A stretch of 64,000 nucleotides of DNA, from positions 31,863 to 95,862 of the forward strand of contig CALVOW010000001.1 in assembly GCA_944350445.1 (NCBI GenBank), in the 5' to 3' direction. The position numbers and the translations under genes were made by a program. The notes beneath the pieces are model-generated. The model had not been told where the DNA came from, searched no databases, and saw only the letters and a program-made list of their open reading frames with translations. The stretch comes from an uncultured Bacilli bacterium (lineage in GTDB: Bacteria; Bacillota_I; Bacilli_A; RF39; UBA660). This document shows positions 13,318-54,838 of this stretch, one piece after another (positions within the stretch are counted from its first letter, which is position 1; the number at the start of each line of letters is the position of its first letter).

Positions 13318-14658
13318 TTAAGATTCCTCGTCAACTATTTGATTTAATTGTTTAACACACTCATCTATATTGTCTGCCCCAATTAAATTACTAATAAAAA
13401 TTAAAATAGTTGGTATCAAATAAATTAAAACAGCAACAATTACACGTTTACCAAATTTTTTCCCAGCTGTTTTAATCCCTTCTTTATCATCTATAAATAC
13501 CACCTTGGCAAAATCAAATGATGTTAAAAGAATTAAAATAATTGGAATACCAATATAAATAATTTTTAAAACATTATTATTTAAAAATTCTAAAAAATCA
13601 TTACCAATAATAATTTGGCAAGTGTTTGTTAAATCATCATCAATTTTTGCTTCAAATAAATGCTCATAATAAATATATAAATTTAAATAAGAAGAACCTG
13701 GTTTAGTATCTGTAAAATGCCAACCATTTCCATCTTGAACAAGATAGGTTGGATAATTATCATAGTCACTTTCATCAATTGTCGATTTATAATCAGCTAA
13801 ATTAGTAATATCAAAATTACTACCATTAGCATTAATTTTATAGACATTATTTTCTTCTATAATAATGACTCTTTTTATTTTAGCACTAGCATTATAAGCT
13901 AGATAAATACCATAACCTGCATTTTGATCAGCATAATTTGTTTCACCTGTATATACCCAGTTAGTTTCAGTTTCAGAAGGATCAACATAAAAATCTCTTT
14001 TATTAAGCCAAGTTCTTGGCGAAATCTCTATATAAGGGGGACATTCATATGTAAAATTCCTAAATTCAAAACTTGGATTTGTATACTCAGAAACACCATC
14101 TTCAGTAATATTAGAAAATTCAATTGCTCCCCCATTTTTAGGTTTTAAAATTGAAAAAGAAAATGTTTGATATGTACTTTCAGTATTTTTATATGCACAA
14201 TTTAAACTATCATATTCATTAGTAACACTACTACCTCCACTATTTTCTACCCAAGAATCGCTAGTTGGTTGTAATTCACCATATTTTTCAAAAGTACCAG
14301 CCATGCTACTAGCCCTATCAAAATAAATGTTATAATAAACCCCAGCACTATTTGTATAATATTTCCAATATAAAGTAGGACAAACTAAACTTTTATCATT
14401 AGAATCTTGAATATTATTTATAGATATTGAAGTTGGTACGAACACATAAATATTTAGTCCGTTAAACATATTATCACTTGTTATTGATGGTTGACTGTCA
14501 TTTTCACCATCATAACTGATTGTAACAGTGCCAACTAAAACTTGAGAATTAGTAGCATCATATAAATTGTAATAACACTCAACTCCATATGCTAAAGCAT
14601 CTATATTAAAAATAAATAAAGAAAGAAATCCAAATAAAATATACTTTAAGTATTTCAT
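13318..14658 (-). CDS. Exported protein P1. It has a signal peptide, an extracellular beta-rich domain and a conserved C-terminal two-helix membrane module.
   Basis: N-terminus MKYLKYILFGFLSLFIFNIDALAYG. C-terminus IPIILILLTSFDFAKVVFIDDKEGIKTAGKKFGKRVIVAVLIYLIPTILIFISNLIG…C. It is a paralog of 15104..16411. Confidence 0.45.
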   Translation of the reverse strand: MKYLKYILFGFLSLFIFNIDALAYGVECYYNLYDATNSQVLVGTVTISYDGENDSQPSITSDNMFNGLNIYVFVPTSISINNIQDSNDKSLVCPTLYWKYYTNSAGVYYNIYFDRASSMAGTFEKYGELQPTSDSWVENSGGSSVTNEYDSLNCAYKNTESTYQTFSFSILKPKNGGAIEFSNITEDGVSEYTNPSFEFRNFTYECPPYIEISPRTWLNKRDFYVDPSETETNWVYTGETNYADQNAGYGIYLAYNASAKIKRVIIIEENNVYKINANGSNFDITNLADYKSTIDESDYDNYPTYLVQDGNGWHFTDTKPGSSYLNLYIYYEHLFEAKIDDDLTNTCQIIIGNDFLEFLNNNVLKIIYIGIPIILILLTSFDFAKVVFIDDKEGIKTAGKKFGKRVIVAVLIYLIPTILIFISNLIGADNIDECVKQLNQIVDEES

Positions 14659-14737
14659 ATTTTCTACCCTTCTAGTTTATATAATTATAATAGCATAGAT
14701 TTTTAATTTTTACTATATCAAAAGAATTAATTAAAGT

Positions 14738-14830
14738 CTTTTAAACCTCATTTAATTCTTCAAGTGATTCTTCATTTTTTTCAACTTTCTTATCAAATTA
14801 TAAAGATAAATTATCCAAATCTTTTATAGT
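14738..14830 (-). pseudogene. Remnant copy of the dnaB-like 3' end, from a duplicated segment
   Basis: 14738..14830 is a near-identical DNA copy of 16481..16575, which is the last ~30 codons of the dnaB-like gene plus its downstream region. Confidence 0.5.
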
Positions 14831-15103
14831 TTTTATTCATTGTTAGATTGCTTGAATTAAAAAGGAATCATCTTTATTCTACTAATAAATTAATTACAGC
14901 TTTAAAAAATTTAATTATAGAAAAATTGAACATAATATTTATTAAATTCTTATAATTCTTCTATTATTAATGATTTATCTGCTATTTATAGCTTAGATTT
15001 TTCTAACAAAATTCTTTTAAACTAACCTATATACATCAACGCTTTACGTATTTTAATTGTCAAATTTAAGATATCTGTAAAATTATAACACTTTAAAAAC
15101 TAG

Positions 15104-16411
15104 TCAATTATTCCCACCTGCATTTTCAGCAACTTCTTCAAGTTGTTTTGCACACTCATCTATTTTATTAGCCCCTAATAAATTACTAACAAAAATTAAA
15201 ATCGTTGGTACTAAATAAATTAAAACAGCAACAATTACACGTTTTCCAAATCTTTTCCCAGCTTTTTGAATTCCTTCTTTATCATCTATAAATACCACCT
15301 TAGCAAAATCAAATGATGTTAAAAGAATTAAAACGATTGGAATACCAATATAAATAATTTTAAAAATATTATTATTTAAAAATTCTAAAAAATCATTTCC
15401 AAATATAACTTGACAAGTTGCTTCTAACTGATCCGTATTGCCCGAAATAGAAAATAGATGTTCGTTAAAAATATAAATATTTTTATACGTACCTGGCTTA
15501 CTTTCAGTAAATTCAAAACCTGAATCCGTTTCAACAAGATAAGTTGGATAATTCTTACCACTTGCAAATTCATCTTGATAATCACTCATATTATTAACAG
15601 TTACTTCCAAAGTATTTGAATAAGCTTTAAATCCACTTCCACTTTTTTGAATAATAATCCTTGGAGCCTTTGAATTACGATAAGCCAAGTAAATTGCATG
15701 AGCAGAATTTTCATCAGCAGTATTACTACTTCCAGTATAAACCCATTCAGTTGCACTGGTTGAAGGACTTATATTATATGTGTAACCATTTAAAATTCCA
15801 CTTGTTCGAACATTTATATACTGCGAACAAGAAAAACTATTAAAATTTTCAAATTTTACAATTGGGGTTAATAGTGCATTCTCTATGGCTGGATTAGTAA
15901 CTGTTAATTCATTAGTTGTTTTATTCCTTTGAATAGTAAAACTAACGGTCACTCCAGTATTATTAACATATTTACATGATAAGTCTTCATATTCATAGGT
16001 AGGCTTATTACTATTCTCAATCCAAGAAGTACTAGCAATATATTCTAAAGTTTTTATTTCAAAATCATTTGGAATATCTTTTTCATTAATAGCAATTCTA
16101 TACTGATTAGCACCCCAATAATTTCGATATCCTTGATATAAGTTTGGACAAGTTAAATCACCACTGCTTGTTTTGATATTATTTAAGGAAATTGTATCTG
16201 GAACCAAAAACAAACCTACACTAACTTTTTGATCATAAGTTATAACAGGACTATTTTCTCCATCATAACTAATATTGATAGTGGAAATGATTTGGTTAGA
16301 ATCATTTGGATTTACAATTTCATAATCACAACTAAGTCCATATGCCAAAGCATCTATATTAAAAATAAATAAAAAAAGAAATCCAAATAAAATATACTTT
16401 AAATATTTCAT
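15104..16411 (-). CDS. Exported protein P2, a paralog of P1 with the same signal peptide and C-terminal membrane module
   Basis: The N-terminal 25 aa and C-terminal ~90 aa are almost identical to P1. The central domain has diverged. The stop codon is TGA. Confidence 0.45.
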   Translation of the reverse strand: MKYLKYILFGFLFLFIFNIDALAYGLSCDYEIVNPNDSNQIISTINISYDGENSPVITYDQKVSVGLFLVPDTISLNNIKTSSGDLTCPNLYQGYRNYWGANQYRIAINEKDIPNDFEIKTLEYIASTSWIENSNKPTYEYEDLSCKYVNNTGVTVSFTIQRNKTTNELTVTNPAIENALLTPIVKFENFNSFSCSQYINVRTSGILNGYTYNISPSTSATEWVYTGSSNTADENSAHAIYLAYRNSKAPRIIIQKSGSGFKAYSNTLEVTVNNMSDYQDEFASGKNYPTYLVETDSGFEFTESKPGTYKNIYIFNEHLFSISGNTDQLEATCQVIFGNDFLEFLNNNIFKIIYIGIPIVLILLTSFDFAKVVFIDDKEGIQKAGKRFGKRVIVAVLIYLVPTILIFVSNLLGANKIDECAKQLEEVAENAGGNN

Positions 16412-25174: not shown

Positions 25175-25244
25175 TTACAAAACTTATTTGCAAACTCTTA
25201 TCCCGTAAGGAAATATTTTTTTGAGAAATATTTCTCTTTATATT

Positions 25245-26207
25245 TTAATCTTTCTTATTTAAAGAAAGATAATCTTGAATTATTTTTTCGACTTCTTCTT
25301 TTTTTATATTTACACATGAACTAATTAAATCTATATCTAATTTTTGTTTATACATGTTAATAACAACATCTTTAGTTTTTTTATTGATTCCTTCTTCTAA
25401 AGCTTCAGCTCGTTCTTCTTTTCTAATGCCAGCCCAAATTCTCGCTTCTTCTTCCTCTTTGTTATAAAATCGGCCCCACATTTTTTCATCTTCAGTCATT
25501 TCCGTCAATACTCCTTCCATTAAATTTTTAATTTCCGGTTTCGTTCGAACATGTTCAATGATACTTTCAAAATCTTTTTGTTTAGTTACACACATGGCAG
25601 CTGATAGTAACATTAAATCCTCTTCATATGGTTCAAACATCCCTTGATAATTATTATCATACCAAAGATTATAACATTCGACAATATTAATATTTAAAAC
25701 TTTTTGCTTTTCAGATAAAATATAACCTTCTTCGTTACGAAATACATATTCATCAAAGACTTTTTTATTTATTTTATCAACATAAAAAGTATTAAAGTTA
25801 ACTAAGAAAGTTATGTCTAAGTTTTCAAAATCAGCTCCTTCTTCCAAACCACTAGTTGCAACTTCTTGCATATAGAAAATGTTTCTATCCATAATACTTT
25901 GATAAAACTTTTTCTTAACATTAACTTCTAAAATAATCTTTTTGGAATTAGTGGTATTAATAGATACAACTACATCTCTTTCTGTTTTTTTCTCACCCAA
26001 AGTATGATTTGGAATACTTAAAGGAGCAAGACTTACGCGACCAACAATATCTTTATATTCAACTTTTAAAATTCTTGATAATAATAAAGTTAGAATTTCT
26101 AAGTGTTCAGGATTAGCAAACATTATTTTAAAAGCTTCATCAAAGTAAAGGGGAATAATCTCTCCATCTTGCAAATTTCTTTTTTTCGTTAATATATTCT
26201 GTTTCAT
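25245..26207 (-). CDS. Rpn-family PD-(D/E)XK nuclease (YhgA-like 'putative transposase')
   Basis: N-terminal FDEAFKIMFANPEHL…LLL…IL plus a D…E.Q…R..Y core arrangement. Confidence 0.45.
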   Translation of the reverse strand: MKQNILTKKRNLQDGEIIPLYFDEAFKIMFANPEHLEILTLLLSRILKVEYKDIVGRVSLAPLSIPNHTLGEKKTERDVVVSINTTNSKKIILEVNVKKKFYQSIMDRNIFYMQEVATSGLEEGADFENLDITFLVNFNTFYVDKINKKVFDEYVFRNEEGYILSEKQKVLNINIVECYNLWYDNNYQGMFEPYEEDLMLLSAAMCVTKQKDFESIIEHVRTKPEIKNLMEGVLTEMTEDEKMWGRFYNKEEEEARIWAGIRKEERAEALEEGINKKTKDVVINMYKQKLDIDLISSCVNIKKEEVEKIIQDYLSLNKKD

Positions 26208-26473
26208 TTTACATCCTTAAAAAATAATAGTCCATAAGAAAAAGAGAAATACTTCTCAATATAATATAAACGGTTTTTAATTGGAAAAATAAAATTAGTT
26301 TAAAATATTAATAAAAAATATTTCTCTGTATTTTTTTATTTATCTTTTAGATAAAGGAATTATATTCTATATATCCAAAAAATCCTTAACCATTCCTCAA
26401 TTAATACAACTATGAAATATGCCAAAGTAATTAAAAAAATAATCCCAAAATAGACAATAATTTGTCAAATTAA

Positions 26474-26500
26474 AATAAAAGCCTTGAATTTTCAAGACCT
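26474..26500 (-). terminator. Hairpin CTTGAAAATTCAAG plus T-run after the stop of the 630-aa gene
   Basis: Inverted repeat plus U-run on the minus strand. Confidence 0.4.
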
Positions 26501-26514
26501 TATTTTTTTACATC

Positions 26515-28407
26515 TTAAAGACTAATTTCAAAAGGCGAACTTTTTGTTCCTAACCCTCCTGTTATCTTAACCGCTGATGATAGATTGATAGATGGACGAG
26601 CGTCATTCATGCCAATCGACGGATCGCTGTAGTTCGCAAAGCCATTGCGACTCACGCGCCAGACGTTTGAGGAAGAAAGTGGAGTTATTAACCACATAAA
26701 TTCTGACGAAGAATATCCGCTTCCTTGTTGGCTTGCAAACATCTCTCCATATCTTGGTAGTCCAACATATCCGGTCCATGTATTTGTTGTTTTAGTACAA
26801 TTGGCTGTAGTTACTGTACTGCTTGTAACTTCACAAATTGCTGACTTATAATTATAATAATCTTCAACTATTCCTAAGTAATAAGTTCCTTCGACTAACA
26901 TATTTTTATAAGTTTCACTGATGGAGTTATACCAGGTATTATTCAAATAATAATCCCAGTATGTATCACTATCTCCACTTCCAAACGTTGTACTACTTGA
27001 AAAATTCTTCTCTATTACAGTATTATCATTATCTCTTACATAATCCATTTTATTTAATTTTGTGGTATTGTTTTCAATGCCAACGATTCGATACAACTCA
27101 CCATCAAAATTTACATATTCACCACTATTTCTTGTATTCAAAAGAGTGACACCAGCTGTTATTGTTTCTTTATCCCCACTTATTGTATATGGATCATCAC
27201 TAGTTCCTGTACCGCCATTTATTGTGATTCCTGATTGCAGATTGATGGATGGTCGAGTGCCATGCAGGGTACTCGACATACTGGTGGAGTACGCACCGCC
27301 GTTGGAGTAGTTGATGTACCAGACTCTCGAGTTCGAAGAAGAATAGGGATTCAGCAACCACCAACAATAACCGATATTTAAATAACCATTACTAGAACTT
27401 GTATTTTGATAACTCTTATAGTATTCATAACTATTTAAAAGCCCAACTGGGGCGGTTACCATGGTTGTTTCTGGCAATTTAGTGCTTACATCTGACACTG
27501 TTGAGGCATTGGAATTGGTGGCATTCCAACTAGCATCGGTAACGATGATATTTTCATAATTATATAAAGTACTCAAAAAATCTTCATTTAACCATTGATA
27601 TATATAAGAACTGGTACTCGCATCAGTATAGAAATTGACATCTTCGCCATAAGCAATTGTTGTAATTGCATCATCCGTTATCATTTTCATCGTACCATCT
27701 GGATAAATCGCCGTTATTCTCCATAGTTTACCACTATACCAAACATAATTAAAATCAATATTATCTGCTGAACCCGATATATAAGTTATTCCATCTTCAA
27801 CAACTGATACTTGGTCTGGAGAACTATTAATTGATGACAATATTTTATCACTTAAAGTATTAACTTGAAATACTTCTATTACAATTCTAGCGGTAAAAGT
27901 TTTATTCATATAAGTACTATCGGCTGTTTCCGATAACCACAATTTTACTTTGTAAGTTGCTGTTTCTAAAACATCTAAAACACCACCAGTATCAATATAA
28001 TAATCTTCACTTAAAGTCTTTGGACTATTATAACCTGTATCATTTTTATTGGAAATAAAGCGAATTACACTTTTAAGTTCAGGGTTAGTTGAAGTCTCTT
28101 CAATATAGACATTATACTGAGCTGTAAAATCACCTGTATTTTTTACTGTAAAAATAAGTTCATCACTTTGACTCATTCCTTCACTATCTGACATAGGAAC
28201 AGCATTATTAATAGTTAATTCATTAGTTTCACTATCAATAAACGTTACTTCTAATAAACCGACATTCATAACATAAGTATTTTCTCCTTGATCGCTACTT
28301 CGAAGTAGTGCATAACTAGTTCCTAATAAAAGAACAACTGCTAATATAATCAAAAAGACTGGTAAAAACTTTTTAAACTCCTTGTTAAACTTTAAATATT
28401 CTTTCAT
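26515..28407 (-). CDS. Secreted/membrane-anchored protein with two CLec/DUF1566-like modules (WRLPT..EL ... YWSST ... VRcV type)
   Basis: N-terminal signal anchor. Two ~75-aa modules: …GLLNSYEYY…CWWLLNPYSSSNSRVWYINYSNGGAYS…GTRPSINL, and …VGLPRYGEM…MWLITPLSSSNVWRVSRNGFANYSDP…DARPSINL. Each is encoded by a locally GC-rich DNA patch. Confidence 0.5.
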   Translation of the reverse strand: MKEYLKFNKEFKKFLPVFLIILAVVLLLGTSYALLRSSDQGENTYVMNVGLLEVTFIDSETNELTINNAVPMSDSEGMSQSDELIFTVKNTGDFTAQYNVYIEETSTNPELKSVIRFISNKNDTGYNSPKTLSEDYYIDTGGVLDVLETATYKVKLWLSETADSTYMNKTFTARIVIEVFQVNTLSDKILSSINSSPDQVSVVEDGITYISGSADNIDFNYVWYSGKLWRITAIYPDGTMKMITDDAITTIAYGEDVNFYTDASTSSYIYQWLNEDFLSTLYNYENIIVTDASWNATNSNASTVSDVSTKLPETTMVTAPVGLLNSYEYYKSYQNTSSSNGYLNIGYCWWLLNPYSSSNSRVWYINYSNGGAYSTSMSSTLHGTRPSINLQSGITINGGTGTSDDPYTISGDKETITAGVTLLNTRNSGEYVNFDGELYRIVGIENNTTKLNKMDYVRDNDNTVIEKNFSSSTTFGSGDSDTYWDYYLNNTWYNSISETYKNMLVEGTYYLGIVEDYYNYKSAICEVTSSTVTTANCTKTTNTWTGYVGLPRYGEMFASQQGSGYSSSEFMWLITPLSSSNVWRVSRNGFANYSDPSIGMNDARPSINLSSAVKITGGLGTKSSPFEISL

Positions 28408-45614: not shown

Positions 45615-46934
45615 TTATTCACTCATATTATTTAAAATATTACAACTATCAGACGTTATTTCATATTCAAGAGAAAGTATATAACTATAAGTAGGATTTC
45701 CAGATAAATGTCCACCTTCGATACAACTTAATGTTTGATAATAAGGACTTTTTAAAATACGATAATCGCTATTTGGCGAAATATAAACCGTTTCTTCTAA
45801 GGGACTTAAATCTATTTCGACCGTATTTTTGTTTTCTTCTAAATCTCTTAAATACTCTCGGTAGTCATAGTCAACCCCATCTTTTGTTACTGTAATACTT
45901 TCAATATTATACCAATAAGCCTTACCTGTTGTATATTCATTAACTAAAACTTTACCAATATCTTCGTTAACTTTTACCTTAATATCCGTTATAATTTTTT
46001 CTTTTTCAAGTCCTAATTTCTGTTCATATTCTTCATTAAAAAAACTGCTTTTAAGAAAATTTTCTAAATCTTTAATTTCATTGCCAATTTTAACTTCTCC
46101 TACTCCATAATTACAACTACTATAATAATGATAATTATTATAATCAGTTATAAAAGTTCTTTCATCACTTAAACATACTAACTTTGAAATATCTACTTTT
46201 CTTGAATTTATATCTAAAACAAAACGATAAATATAAAAACTACTTACTAATAACAATACTATAAATAATAAAGTATAAAAAAGATTGCCAATTATTTTTT
46301 TCTTAATAGAAAATTTTAAAAAGATAAATTCAATTATTTTTTTAAGTTTTGTTCTTTTAATAAGTAAATATAATAAGAAAGCCCCACCTATATTTAAAAT
46401 AATATCATCTATATCAAAACTACCGACATTAATAAGAAATTGAACAATTTCAATAAATAAAGTTAAACTAACTATACTAATTAAAAATATTTTCGTCTTT
46501 TTAAATTTATCATTTATTAAAGGAAGTAAAATACTAAGGGGGGTTAACATTAAAAAGTTACCAGTTATATTGTAAAGACCAAATTTTACTCCTAAGGGAC
46601 TATTTAACATTTCAATCATTGATTTAAAAGGAATAAAATTCCAATTATAATGATAAATGTCATTAGTAATTGCTGAACTAACAGTTCTAGCGTTTGAAAA
46701 AACAAACCCAACTAAAACAATCAAATAAATTATTAAATAAATAATTAAATTTTGTTTTTTAGTCTTTTTATCAGTTGTTAAAAATGACGATATTAAAATC
46801 ATAAAACAAGGTATAGCTAAAAAATATACATGCTTAATTTCTCTTAAAATATTACTATGAATATTAAAAACAAATAATAGCAAAATATACATAATTGAAC
46901 CAATTAAAACTGAAATATAATTTAGTATTTTCAT
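45615..46934 (-). CDS. VanZ-like N-terminal membrane domain fused to a Cys-containing extracytoplasmic C-terminal domain (paralog A)
   Basis: VanZ core (NFIPF…IEIVQF…FDIDDIILNIGGAF). C-terminal …CIEGGHLSGNPTYSYIL.L.YEITSDSCNILN. Confidence 0.45.
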   Translation of the reverse strand: MKILNYISVLIGSIMYILLLFVFNIHSNILREIKHVYFLAIPCFMILISSFLTTDKKTKKQNLIIYLIIYLIVLVGFVFSNARTVSSAITNDIYHYNWNFIPFKSMIEMLNSPLGVKFGLYNITGNFLMLTPLSILLPLINDKFKKTKIFLISIVSLTLFIEIVQFLINVGSFDIDDIILNIGGAFLLYLLIKRTKLKKIIEFIFLKFSIKKKIIGNLFYTLLFIVLLLVSSFYIYRFVLDINSRKVDISKLVCLSDERTFITDYNNYHYYSSCNYGVGEVKIGNEIKDLENFLKSSFFNEEYEQKLGLEKEKIITDIKVKVNEDIGKVLVNEYTTGKAYWYNIESITVTKDGVDYDYREYLRDLEENKNTVEIDLSPLEETVYISPNSDYRILKSPYYQTLSCIEGGHLSGNPTYSYILSLEYEITSDSCNILNNMSE

Positions 46935-46980
46935 TACAAATATCCCTCCTTTTAATAAAATATTTCAATTAATAATTTAA

Positions 46981-48333
46981 TTATTGTTCATCTAAACTAT
47001 TTAAAATATTACAACTATCAGAAGTTATTTCATAATCAAGTGGAAGTATATAACTATAAGTAGGATTCCCAGATAAATGTCCACCTTCGATACAATTTAA
47101 TTCTTGATAATAAGGACTTCTTGAAATAGTATAACTTCTATCAGGAGACATATAAATTGTTTCTTCAAAAGGTGCTAAATTTATTTCTACCGTATTTTTA
47201 TCTTCTTTTAAAGCTTCTAGATATTCACGAAAATCGTACTCAACTCCATCTTGGATTATTGTTATACTTTCAATATTATACCAATAAGTATTAACATCTT
47301 GAAATTTATTAACTAAAACTTTACCAATATCTTTATTAACTTTTACCTTAATATCCGTTATAATTTTTTCTTTATCTAAATCTAATTTTTCTTCATATTC
47401 TAAATCTAAATGACCATAATAAATAAAATCAATTAAAGTATATGGAAAATCATTAACAAGAATGGTATTATTTCCATAATTACAATTACTATAATAATGA
47501 TAGTTATCATAATCTAATAAGTAAACTCTTTCGTCACTAACACAAACCATATTTGATATATCAATATTATCTTTTCTAATACTTAAATCATAAAAAATAT
47601 TAAAAAAATTATAAATAGATAATAAAAACAAAACAATAAATAATAGAAAATAGAAAATATTTAAAAGAATCTTTAATACTTTTCTTTTATTATTAATTTT
47701 TAAAGTTAAAAAGAACTTTTCAAGATAAATTTTTAATCTTGTTTTTTTAATAAGTAAATATAATAAGAAAGCTCCACCTATATTTAAAATAACATCATCA
47801 ATATCAAAACTACCGACATTAACAAGAAATTGAACAATTTCAATGAATAAGGTTAAACCAACAATACTAATTAAAAATATTTTCGTCTTTTTAAATTTAT
47901 CATTTATTAAAGGAAGTAATATACTAAGGGGTGTTAACATTAAAAAGTTACCAATTATATTGTAAAGTCCAAATGTTACTCCTAAGGGACTATTTAACAT
48001 CTCAATCATTGATTTAAAAGGGATAAAATTCCAGTAATAATGCATTATACCACTAGTAAGTGCTGAATTAACCCTAGCATTTGAAAAGACAAAACCAACT
48101 AAAACCGTAAGATAAATTATTAAATATAAATATAAAATTCTTTTTCTATCTTTTCCTTCTTTAAAAAAAGATGTAATTAAAAGCATAAAACAAGGTATGG
48201 CTAAAATATAAACATATTTTATTTCTTTTAAATAATTTATATCAATTTGATAAACAAAAAGCATTAATAAATATACAACAATACTAATAATAACAGCAAA
48301 ATAATTAAGTATTTTCTTCATAAACTCCTCCAT
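46981..48333 (-). CDS. VanZ-like fusion protein, paralog B. It is tandem to paralog A, and one ~250-bp tract is about 95% identical at the DNA level.
   Basis: Same architecture. DNA 47701..47940 is near-identical to 46321..46560. Confidence 0.45.
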   Translation of the reverse strand: MEEFMKKILNYFAVIISIVVYLLMLFVYQIDINYLKEIKYVYILAIPCFMLLITSFFKEGKDRKRILYLYLIIYLTVLVGFVFSNARVNSALTSGIMHYYWNFIPFKSMIEMLNSPLGVTFGLYNIIGNFLMLTPLSILLPLINDKFKKTKIFLISIVGLTLFIEIVQFLVNVGSFDIDDVILNIGGAFLLYLLIKKTRLKIYLEKFFLTLKINNKRKVLKILLNIFYFLLFIVLFLLSIYNFFNIFYDLSIRKDNIDISNMVCVSDERVYLLDYDNYHYYSNCNYGNNTILVNDFPYTLIDFIYYGHLDLEYEEKLDLDKEKIITDIKVKVNKDIGKVLVNKFQDVNTYWYNIESITIIQDGVEYDFREYLEALKEDKNTVEINLAPFEETIYMSPDRSYTISRSPYYQELNCIEGGHLSGNPTYSYILPLDYEITSDSCNILNSLDEQ

Positions 48334-52747: not shown

Positions 52748-52772
52748 AATAGATGCGAATCTATTTTTTTAA
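52748..52772. terminator. Bidirectional terminator hairpin TAGATgcgaATCTA plus T-run, between two convergent genes
   Basis: Inverted repeat followed by TTTTTTT. It overlaps the stop of the convergent minus-strand gene. Confidence 0.5.
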
Positions 52773-53579
52773 TACTTTTGTTCTATCTAAAAGTTCTAAT
52801 TCTTCAATTTTTAAAATACCTTCTATATATTTTTCTTTATTTTTATCTCTTACTATAACTGTTTGATTAAAAAATTCAATTATACTTAAATATTCTAATA
52901 TTCTAAAATTTAAAGTATCTTTTGGCATATCTTCTTCTATCTGAATAAATCTCGTTTCTAAAAGTCTTGTCATTTTTTTCTGACCTTTGGAATCGATAAA
53001 GAAATATTCATTACCTTCTTTTACTAAAGCAAAACCAAAACGAAATAAATCAGCTTCATTATAAGTGGGAGAAATAATAAACTCATTATTTCGATTAATA
53101 AATCCCCATTTTCCATTAGTTTTAACTGGAGCTAAACCATTACTAAAAGAGGAAGCCATCTCATATTGAAAAGGAATTATAACTGAATTAGTTTTATCTA
53201 TAAATCCCCAAGCTCCTTCATACTTAACACAAGCTAAATCTTCTTGAAAAGGTAAACCTTTTTGATAATCAAAAGGAATAATTAGGTTAGAATCAGAATC
53301 CCCATAACCAACCATACCATCTTTTTTTAATGGTTTTAAACTACTAAAATCTGAATTTTTCATTTCTTGATTTCGTTTATAAATAATCATTTTTAAATCA
53401 GATTCTGGATATTCACAAGGTAAAACTTCTTCTAAACGATTATTAATAAAACCACATAAACCATTTTGCGAATTCTTAACTAAATAAAAATTTTCATAGG
53501 CATAAGATACCGCATCATATCTTGCCAACACACTTAATCTTCTTTCTAATTCAACTTTTATAAAATCACTTCTTTGCAT
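52761..53579 (-). CDS. WG-repeat (KWGFI) containing protein
   Basis: Repeated GKWGFINRNNEFIISPTY-type WG beta repeats. Confidence 0.5.
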   Translation of the reverse strand: MQRSDFIKVELERRLSVLARYDAVSYAYENFYLVKNSQNGLCGFINNRLEEVLPCEYPESDLKMIIYKRNQEMKNSDFSSLKPLKKDGMVGYGDSDSNLIIPFDYQKGLPFQEDLACVKYEGAWGFIDKTNSVIIPFQYEMASSFSNGLAPVKTNGKWGFINRNNEFIISPTYNEADLFRFGFALVKEGNEYFFIDSKGQKKMTRLLETRFIQIEEDMPKDTLNFRILEYLSIIEFFNQTVIVRDKNKEKYIEGILKIEELELLDRTKVLKK

Positions 53580-53593
53580 ATAATCTCCTTATT

Positions 53594-54838
53594 TTATCTT
53601 TTTATTTTTTTAACCAAATGTTTATCTAAAATATCTTCGAAAAATTCGCTTTCTTCTTGAACTTGAATCGCTTTATAAACACTTATTAAAGATTCTAAAT
53701 ATTTATTGTAATCACTTTCTGATACAAATACTATTTCCGAAGAATTAGTTTTAAAAGCACTTACATACTCTAATATTTCTGGGTTAAAATATTCACTTGG
53801 TATGTCTTGTAAACTTTTAACATACAAAGTTTCTTCTTTATCTTTTAAGTCTTTAAATTCCAATTCTTTACCTTCTCTATCGATAAAAAAACAGCGACTA
53901 TTGTTTACAACAAAGGCAAAACCTTCATGAAAACTAAAAACTAAGTCATATATACAAGGTACTACTATTTCCCCATTTTTATTGATAAAGCCACATTTAT
54001 TTTTACGCTTATCCTTAATAGCAGCTCGTCCTTCATGAAAATCTTTCAAAAAATAGTACTTATAATCATAAGATATTAATTGCTCTCCATTTTTATTTAT
54101 GAAACCTATATTATTTTTCGTTCTTACATAAGCTAAACCTTCATGAAAAGATCTTGCTTTACAATATTTAAAGGCTATTACTTCTTGACCATCTTTATCT
54201 ATAAAACCATATTTACCATTTTGTGGATTTTTAACACATGCTAGTCCTTCATGAAAAGACTTGGCTGATTCATAAATACACGGTATAACCTCTTTACCAA
54301 ATCTATTTATAAAGCCATTATAATATTCCTTTCTAATACACGCTAAACCTTCTCGAAAGCCTTCGGATTCAGAAGAACAAGTAAAAACTAAATCTCCATT
54401 TTCATTTAAATACCTAGTTTCTAGAAATCCATAAGGATCAATTCCTACCAACCCCTCGCAAAAATCTTCTGGTTGCTCTAAAAGATTACATTTAAAAACC
54501 TCTTTGCCTTCTTTATTTAAAAAACTCCAACGATTATTTTTCATAACAGCTACTCGTCCTTCTTGAAAAGACCTTGCCCTATCATAAATACATGGTACTA
54601 TTTCTTGGCCTTGTTTATTGATAAAACCCCATTTTTCATTTTTTAATACAGCAGCTAAACCTTCCGAAAAATTAAGTACATCATCATAAATACGTGGTAT
54701 CACTTCCTTACCATTTTTATTTATAAAACCATACTTTTTATTTTTGGAAACAACTGCTAAACCTTCTTGAAAATTTCTCACTTCATCATAATCGTCTTTT
54801 TTATAAGCCCGAACTTTTAAGTAATCATATCTTTGCAT
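53594..54838 (-). CDS. WG-repeat containing protein (about 8 repeats)
   Basis: Repeats of …KYGFINK.G.EVIP.IY…F.EGLA.V…. Confidence 0.55.
   Translation of the reverse strand: MQRYDYLKVRAYKKDDYDEVRNFQEGLAVVSKNKKYGFINKNGKEVIPRIYDDVLNFSEGLAAVLKNEKWGFINKQGQEIVPCIYDRARSFQEGRVAVMKNNRWSFLNKEGKEVFKCNLLEQPEDFCEGLVGIDPYGFLETRYLNENGDLVFTCSSESEGFREGLACIRKEYYNGFINRFGKEVIPCIYESAKSFHEGLACVKNPQNGKYGFIDKDGQEVIAFKYCKARSFHEGLAYVRTKNNIGFINKNGEQLISYDYKYYFLKDFHEGRAAIKDKRKNKCGFINKNGEIVVPCIYDLVFSFHEGFAFVVNNSRCFFIDREGKELEFKDLKDKEETLYVKSLQDIPSEYFNPEILEYVSAFKTNSSEIVFVSESDYNKYLESLISVYKAIQVQEESEFFEDILDKHLVKKIKR

Follow-up and report, generated by a model that had tools for sequence, protein, structure and literature searches.

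Do two short GC-rich patches in a surface-protein gene of an uncultured, very low-GC Bacilli bacterium represent variable regions (VRs) of a diversity-generating retroelement (DGR), and, if so, where are the template repeat (TR) and the reverse transcriptase (RT) that wrote them? The question was raised by a preliminary description of a stretch of DNA of 64,000 nucleotides (64 kb), further called the window. The mean GC content of the window is 0.26 with a standard deviation of 0.055 (150-nt windows), and the top two 150-nt values of the whole 64 kb fall at 26511–26781 (0.49) and 27148–27403 (0.50). For codon scoring, 55 open reading frames (ORFs) with 19,400 codons were read in 18,080 sliding 25-codon windows. 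Against a background of GC3 0.139 and C3 0.053 over the 55 ORFs, rank 1 of the 18,080 codon windows belongs to 27265–27339 (GC3 0.80, C3 0.52) and rank 2, among non-overlapping ones, to 26602–26676 (GC3 0.68, C3 0.44). The third-ranked codon window lies in mraY and reaches a GC3 of 0.56 via a Gly/Ala-rich conserved motif. GC-rich windows in mraY, nrdG and nrdD were considered as related features and rejected, since conserved Gly/Ala/Cys-rich motifs account for them.

The composition anomaly of the patches is far above chance. Their codons are of the NNC, GCG, CCG and TCG types, and fixed residues within them use GTC, TGG, GGC, GCG, CCG, TCG and CGT, which are rare codons in the genome. The preliminary description had reported patches of about 50% GC in a genome of A/T-ending codons, a list of NNC-type codons dominating them, and antisense ORFs at 26645..26851 and 27062..27310. 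The first claim is borne out by ranks 1 and 2 for both GC3 and C3, the same codons are read in the patches, and both antisense ORFs are present as mechanical ORFs.

Both patches belong to one chromosomal gene, whose neighbours include a glucosaminidase gene, nrdD/nrdG and ftsK. The gene and its parts are as follows.

26515..28407, minus strand: target gene ORF, 630 aa
27853..28290, minus strand: N-terminal beta-sandwich domain (aa 40–185), after the signal/TM segment
27172..27822, minus strand: DUF6273 module 1 (aa 196–412), C-type-lectin (CLec) fold
26518..27156, minus strand: module 2 (aa 418–630), delimited by internal similarity and orthologue alignment

The 630-aa protein starts with an N-terminal signal/TM segment, followed by the beta-sandwich domain and by two tandem DUF6273 modules, each terminated by a VR. 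The beta-sandwich domain is likely the anchor or fibre-forming part that displays both variable modules. According to internal similarity and the orthologue alignment, modules 1 and 2 share the motifs GLPRYGEMF, MWLITP, SSS.VW and RPSINL. The patches had been described as the equivalent loop of two homologous modules, and both modules indeed end with RPSINL.

DUF6273 (PF19789) is the sole Pfam match of the window protein, at 20.7 bits with the gathering cut-off of 23.5 (E=4e-4); it covers residues 266–391, that is, module 1 only, and reaches the profile end. The same domain was found in 35 of 39 orthologues at E<=0.01 (the best value being 2.9e-8), and a precomputed PF19789 match is present in most homologues. 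For the window protein, the NCBIfam search gave no match, the PDB profile search by sequence gave nothing useful, and no sequence match was obtained with the DUF1566 or FISUMP family profiles. Of the families proposed in the preliminary description, a CLec-fold domain was matched, if below threshold, as DUF6273, whereas DUF1566/FISUMP was not.

The full-length AF2 model computed with 39 close orthologues had pLDDT <50 over the lectin modules and was superseded by a run on module 1 alone (aa 196–412, 121 diverse homologue rows) with a pLDDT of 95.5. Structure comparison of the module-1 model yielded values of 17.3 for a domain of the Thomasclavelia ramosa IgA peptidase, 7.4 for the Legionella Lcl C-terminal domain, 7.1 for the Bacteroides fimbrial protein 4eps, 6.8 for the DGR protein TvpA, 5–6 for dozens of C-type lectins and FGE-like proteins, and 4.8 for Mtd. 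Foldseek with the same model was significant only for the IgA peptidase (PDB 9qa6), a protease with other domains. The resemblance of the model to C-type lectins, TvpA and Mtd agrees with the CLec-like fold assumed earlier. The VR is located at the C-terminal end of the C-type-lectin-fold domain, as is characteristic of DGR targets. For DUF6273 itself, a role as DGR target domain with a C-terminal VR has been published (PMC11792537).

The variable positions of the gene are as follows.

27250..27342, minus strand: VR of module 1 (the second patch of the preliminary description), codons 356–386, SSSNSRVWYINYSNGGAYSTSMSSTLHGTRP
26593..26676, minus strand: VR of module 2 (the first patch), codons 578–605, SSSNVWRVSRNGFANYSDPSIGMNDARP
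27364..27366, minus strand: isolated hypervariable codon 348, the x of GYxWWLL, upstream of the module-1 VR, column entropy 3.18 bits

More than 1,000 homologues per search were retrieved from uncultured 'Bacilli' / Erysipelotrichaceae MAGs and metagenomes, with several paralogues of the target protein per genome. In their alignment the protein is well conserved outside both patches, and inside the patches a fixed frame is retained, SSSxVWxVxxxGxAxxxxP(S)xxxxGxRPSINL, also seen as SSSxVWxVxxxGxAxxxxPSxxxxGARP. Among 120 homologues, an entropy of at least 2.5 bits was observed in 27 of 69 patch columns as compared to 16 of 559 columns elsewhere. The hypervariable columns are 359–382 in module 1, with an AAC-type residue spectrum, and 581–601 in module 2. 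In the same 120 homologues, K, E, Q, M and W together constitute 1.9% of residues at hypervariable patch columns versus 16.8% at variable columns elsewhere. N, Y, S, D, G, H and R are the most frequent residues in the hypervariable patch columns, followed by F, L, T, I and others. Such a spectrum is expected if both adenines of AAC codons are randomised, given that K, E, Q, M and W are unreachable from AAC; similarly, one patch column varies between A, T and S, as expected from an ACG codon mutated at adenine alone. Hypervariability restricted to AAC-type positions, with residues derived from AAC, is a distinguishing property of DGR targets, and its concentration in the patches speaks for the DGR-type variable regions postulated in the preliminary description. 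In generic phage TRs an AAC codon precedes TGG TGG, at the position matching codon 348.

Part of this pattern could be ascribed to point mutation under diversifying selection combined with recombination between paralogues, with no retroelement involved and with the GC content arising from amino-acid or structural constraints. This would leave the near-absence of K/E/Q/M/W unexplained; nor does selection on amino acids account for C-ending synonymous codons being 10 times as frequent as in the genome overall, or for GCG, CCG and TCG at invariant residues.

An abrupt composition change would also be produced by horizontally acquired or mosaic higher-GC segments or by an assembly chimera, and the 3' part of the gene does move between loci. 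Specifically, L038 has all of the 1.28-kb 3' cassette, including identical copies of both VRs, at a different genomic site and joined to another N-terminal domain. However, this mobile cassette is low-GC outside the VRs. Moreover, each high-GC stretch spans just some 90 nt and is flanked on both sides by native low-GC codons. Its structural position is shared by the two modules and by every homologue, and assemblies of several samples independently recovered this gene sequence. We consider an origin of this kind extremely improbable.

The two patches are no near-copies of each other in their DNA, where indels and numerous substitutions separate them. A single TR as the source of both was rejected because of these indels and the many non-adenine positions among the differences. 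TRs were searched for with the family-specific pattern AAYRTCTGGAAYGTNAAYAAYAAYGG, which is strict (RTC TGG and five AAY codons are required) and thus misses diverged TRs. It matched just two of approximately 185,000 species genomes, an Erysipelotrichaceae rumen MAG with 29% GC (L030) and a spore-former MAG with 23% GC (L031). In both the TR is intergenic and comes directly after a homologue of the window gene that likewise has two modules, the TR RNA gene lying approximately 60–100 nt beyond its stop codon. In L031, all seven mismatches between VR-A and the TR are at TR adenines (P=7e-5); in VR-B, all ten mismatches in the 5' 57 nt are on adenines, and a block of non-adenine differences follows. 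In L030 the differences are mostly adenine-sited, and the VRs are 6 nt longer than the TR. Even when compared to the foreign L031 TR, the window module-2 VR has 12 mismatches in 48 nt, ten of them at TR adenines and two being third-position C->T changes. The preliminary description had predicted a TR with adenine-only mismatches outside the window, and the TRs beside homologous genes in two related MAGs lend support to this prediction.

The 3' limit of the TR/VR homology is CGCCC in L030 and the GC-rich GGCGTCCGTCC in L031, and the window VRs have GCTCGTCC and ACTCGACC at their 3' ends. A hairpin 3' of the VRs was sought, and none beat the shuffles (z-scores were positive); such a hairpin is not known to be universal among DGRs.

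A metagenome scan with the same family-specific pattern revealed a canonical DGR (L032/L033) in a host with 49% GC. It consists of a target ending with ...GIVWLVYGDGNFIDYGGPSNTYGFRP / ...VWLVYGDGNFIDYGGPSNTYGFRP, an Avd-like gene, a TR, and a 449-aa RT with YVDD. Its TR has the core TGGAACGTGAACAACAATGGCAAC, and both this 24-nt core and the frame are identical to those of the family under study. The generic TR pattern TGGAAYGTNAAYAAYAAYGGNAAY applied to viral contigs retrieved phage DGR TRs of the classical type, which read WWLRSPN..NFWNVNNNGN.NNNNA.N.NGVCP*. Since phage TRs share WNVNNNGN.NNNN, this frame is a standard DGR frame. The family-specific pattern and its GTW variant gave 0 matches in viral contigs, and no relatives of the target protein were found there. 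Blastn of the L031 TR RNA against the phage database retrieved short generic TR segments only. The conserved non-coding RNA motif of the family, when searched in viral contigs, gave six matches, rejected as chance ones: they lie inside unrelated ORFs, and no RT is present at those loci.

The GC content of the TR is 0.51–0.57 in three hosts ranging from 23% to 49% GC, and that of the window VRs is 0.55–0.56. The GC spike in the window is therefore explained by a TR composition that is independent of the host GC and is stamped onto the gene at each homing event.

We conclude that the patches are very probably DGR variable regions, two per gene, on the DUF6273/CLec modules of a chromosomal surface protein. 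This conclusion is carried by the composition anomaly, the CLec fold, AAC-type hypervariability in a fixed frame, and, in related genomes, TRs that lie next to homologous genes and mismatch at adenines only; the VRs of the window would have been written likewise, from a TR and an RT outside the window. The non-coding copies with adenine-only differences in relatives are a further observation that diversifying selection and recombination leave unexplained. Exchange of VR cassettes does occur in this family (the L038 3' end and a case described below), and RT was found neither in the window nor at the target loci of the clade, as a scheme with no retroelement would have it; yet such a scheme is strongly disfavoured and, in our estimate, very improbable.

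In the proposed DGR mechanism, a non-translated TR RNA would be reverse-transcribed with random copying at template adenines. The TR, with approximately 55% GC, would be AAC-rich between the fixed codons GTC TGG, GGC, GCG, CCG and CGT CC. In each DUF6273 lectin module the cDNA would take the place of the 3' end, and with every rewrite the TR composition would be stamped on the gene. Imposition of the TR composition by rewriting would account for the presence of about 90 nt per module at approximately 55% GC with NNC codons in a genome whose GC3 is 14%. The outcome would be two independently variable putative ligand-binding faces on one secreted or surface-anchored protein. The mechanism as such is already known; what is unusual is the double-VR, multi-paralogue architecture unlinked from any RT.

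The window itself was searched for parts of the retroelement by several procedures. The adenine-tolerant search with its own patches (A=A, C=M, G=R, T=W) retrieved only the patches themselves and a few A-rich chance 24-mers in the 64 kb, and the generic TR motif with up to three mismatches gave 0 matches there. Likewise, nhmmer with the L030/L031 TR-RNA profile gave no match in the window, and tblastn of the 64 kb with DGR RT gave nothing better than E=0.026. All of these searches are consistent with the earlier statement that neither an RT nor a template repeat is present in the window. Two features follow the target gene.

26472..26509, minus strand: intrinsic-terminator-like hairpin with a T-run directly after the target stop codon, read from the sequence
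25245..26207: PDDEXK_2 transposase-like ORF, next after the terminator hairpin, with 52-nt inverted repeats on both sides

Thus, at the position where L030 and L031 carry the TR, the window has a terminator-like hairpin only. The transposase-like insertion is absent from the syntenic locus L004.

The recent history of the VRs was followed in close relatives. The DNA of the target gene is identical in contigs from two other samples (L001, L003), and a third sample (L002) has 8 nt differences in this gene, all of them outside the VRs. In the 90% cluster of the window protein, two VR columns vary versus 13 columns outside the VRs, and in 14 clusters of the family the VRs are usually frozen while the remaining protein drifts. 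Among clusters, a whole VR is occasionally replaced, and a few changes are confined to AAC-type positions. The VR of cluster 8 is identical to that of cluster 4; given that the new VR is identical to the VR of another lineage, at least one replacement is due to recombination. Some whole-VR differences between close relatives thus appear to have arisen by recombination rather than fresh mutagenesis. In several related lineages (clusters 3 and 5; cluster 4) the VRs contain K, E, M or Q at formerly AAC-type positions. The comparison of strains proposed in the preliminary description has a two-sided outcome: variation among homologues is concentrated in the patches, but the VRs of near-identical strains are almost invariant. 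The latter means that rewriting is rare or episodic, or that the retroelement has been lost. The system in the window strain is apparently quiescent, and the window gene would be either a remote, seldom rewritten target or an orphan.

The orphan state would correspond to a fossil target, written by a DGR in the past and left after loss of the working TR and RT, with VRs that drift AT-ward and move by recombination only. This concerns the present state of the gene and not the origin of its VRs, and we assign it somewhat less than an even chance. The freezing of VRs while the rest of the protein varies, seen in the cluster of the window and several others, is what a fossil would show, as are the K/E/M/Q residues in related lineages. 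The module-1 VR has indels, being three codons longer than the family frame, and non-adenine-type changes at otherwise fixed codons (P->M and A->T relative to the consensus; NNC->CTG), and, compared to the nearest TR, the module-2 VR has C->T changes at third positions. At the site of the relatives' TR, a lone terminator followed by an insertion that the syntenic locus lacks points in the same direction, as does the retrieval of only two species genomes with the strict TR pattern. On the other hand, a GC3 of 0.68–0.80 in a genome with 14% GC3 means little decay, and the module-2 VR still fits the TR frame with two non-adenine differences per 48 nt. Clusters 1 and 4, with changes at AAC-type positions only or with one VR replaced, also argue against a fossil. 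The strict pattern, in turn, would miss diverged TRs, and the absence of TR and RT refers to the 64-kb window.

In L030 and L031 the TR is part of a conserved non-coding unit, which comprises a ATAGGTGTAT(A/G)ATGAA element, the TR, approximately 170 nt of conserved sequence, and a terminator hairpin with a conserved loop. The first element reads as an extended −10 promoter. In the ~170 nt after the TR some compensatory pairs are present, as judged from two sequences only. Rfam has no family for the TR-associated RNA, and no Rfam family was found anywhere in the window.

The RT was sought by tblastn with the L032 RT as a query, a procedure that recovered RT at 20 of 21 phage TR loci. None was found in L001–L008, L030/L034, L031/L045, L035–L038 and L046–L049. 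In particular, the 10 kb that flank the L031 TR on each side contain no RT, and there is none near the L030 TR, whose contig ends 1.1 kb past the gene. The L032 Avd-like protein had no tblastn match outside L032/L033, which is a weak test given that Avd proteins are poorly conserved. The unusual part is that the TR in relatives appears to be a stand-alone RNA gene, with RT absent within 10 kb at the sole fully flanked locus.

It is conceivable, though doubtful, that a 'split' DGR operates in this clade, whose members are Erysipelotrichaceae-like MAGs of Bacilli with very low GC from gut and rumen. The TR RNA gene would then travel with one target, the RT would be distant or supplied by another element, and many scattered two-VR paralogues on TasA-like surface proteins would be serviced, the window gene being a remote double-VR target.

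The DGR of Bordetella phage BPP-1, with the target Mtd, is the founding example of these systems. The family studied here resembles it in the adenine-specific TR-to-VR transfer, the AAC-rich TR, the VR at the C-terminal end of a CLec fold, and the GC-rich 3' end of the TR/VR homology (GGCGTCCGTCC in L031). The DGR targets of the Faecalibacterium prophages Lelie, CP11, Roos and Pioen share the Pfam domain DUF6273 with the family studied here, and their VR likewise maps to its C-terminal end (PMC11792537). They are encoded by phages, next to the TR and RT, whereas the window protein is chromosomal, with neither of them within 64 kb, and has two DUF6273 modules and two VRs. According to DGR surveys, targets are sometimes remote, the TR accompanying the RT (PMC5758913, PMC4143802). 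This is the arrangement in the DGRs of Treponema denticola (TvpA), Legionella and Trichodesmium, with the TR beside the RT and remote targets (PMC5758913, PMC4143802). Unlike these, the relatives of the window gene have the TR RNA gene beside the target, with no RT within 10 kb on either side in L031/L045.

As seen from this locus, an abrupt codon-level composition spike can suffice to reveal a DGR target that has no retroelement in its vicinity. To our knowledge, DGR-finding pipelines anchor on the RT and then seek a nearby TR. If the split DGR is true, such RT-anchored pipelines would miss systems of this type, and if the layout with the TR beside the target and the RT elsewhere is real, RT-anchored surveys under-count DGRs. 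The repertoire of DGR targets gains a large chromosomal family with two variable lectin faces per protein, hosted by uncultured gut and rumen Bacilli. The family also provides a natural series from freshly written VRs (L031) via frozen ones (the window) to visibly decayed ones, which may serve to examine the firing frequency of cellular DGRs and the ways in which their targets die.

In two low-GC relatives, an Erysipelotrichaceae rumen MAG (L030, 29% GC) and the MAG of a spore-former (L031, 23% GC), a stand-alone TR RNA gene lies directly 3' of the two-module target gene:

L030:640-1010, minus strand, stand-alone TR RNA gene
L031:2250-2600, minus strand, stand-alone TR RNA gene

Four parts make up each gene: an extended −10-like element, itself conserved; the TR; a conserved non-coding stretch of about 170 nt that includes some compensatory pairs; and a terminator hairpin whose AATGGTA loop is conserved. 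They are matched by no Rfam family, and no RT was found within 10 kb of the L031 gene. The TR core of these low-GC templates is identical to that of a complete canonical DGR on 49% GC metagenome contigs, where the end of a DUF6273-type target is accompanied by a 225-aa Avd-like gene, a TR and a 449-aa RT with the YVDD motif:

L032:390-2849 and L033:7-3273, complete canonical DGR

In its 3' portion (L031:2489-2520, minus strand) the L031 TR reads GGC GCG TTC, which matches VR-A exactly and departs from the AAC ACG AAC-like family frame present in L031 VR-B and in the L032 TR. The L031 template itself seems to have been overwritten or to have drifted. Both L030 VRs are 6 nt longer than the L030 TR.

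In the window, the intergenic region downstream of the target gene, which is the site of the TR RNA gene in relatives, holds an insertion immediately past the target-gene terminator, with nrdD on its other side:

25213-26267, whole element
25245-26207, minus strand, PDDEXK_2 'transposase' ORF (Pfam E=8e-14)
25213-25264 and 26216-26267, flanking 52-nt inverted repeats

The element is absent from the syntenic locus L004.

The target gene itself carries a third, milder enrichment in C-ending codons:

27475-27558, GC3 0.44, C3 0.32

This stretch encodes a Ser/Thr/Asn-rich, indel-prone linker (WNATNSNASTVSDVSTKLPE), in which AAC-type variability was not seen. Elsewhere in the window are two tandem pairs of paralogous genes, 82–91% identical across stretches of at most 300 nt, and a run of approximately 102-nt repeats within ORFs 52761..53579 and 53594..54838:

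13318-16411, 45615-48333 and 53120-54784, paralogue pairs and repeat run

Finally, a gene at another locus and with another N-terminal domain has 1,284 nt of 3' sequence in common with the window gene, with 19 differences and both VRs identical:

L038:10573-11857, gene sharing 3' sequence with the window gene

Recombination exchanges the VR-bearing cassette.
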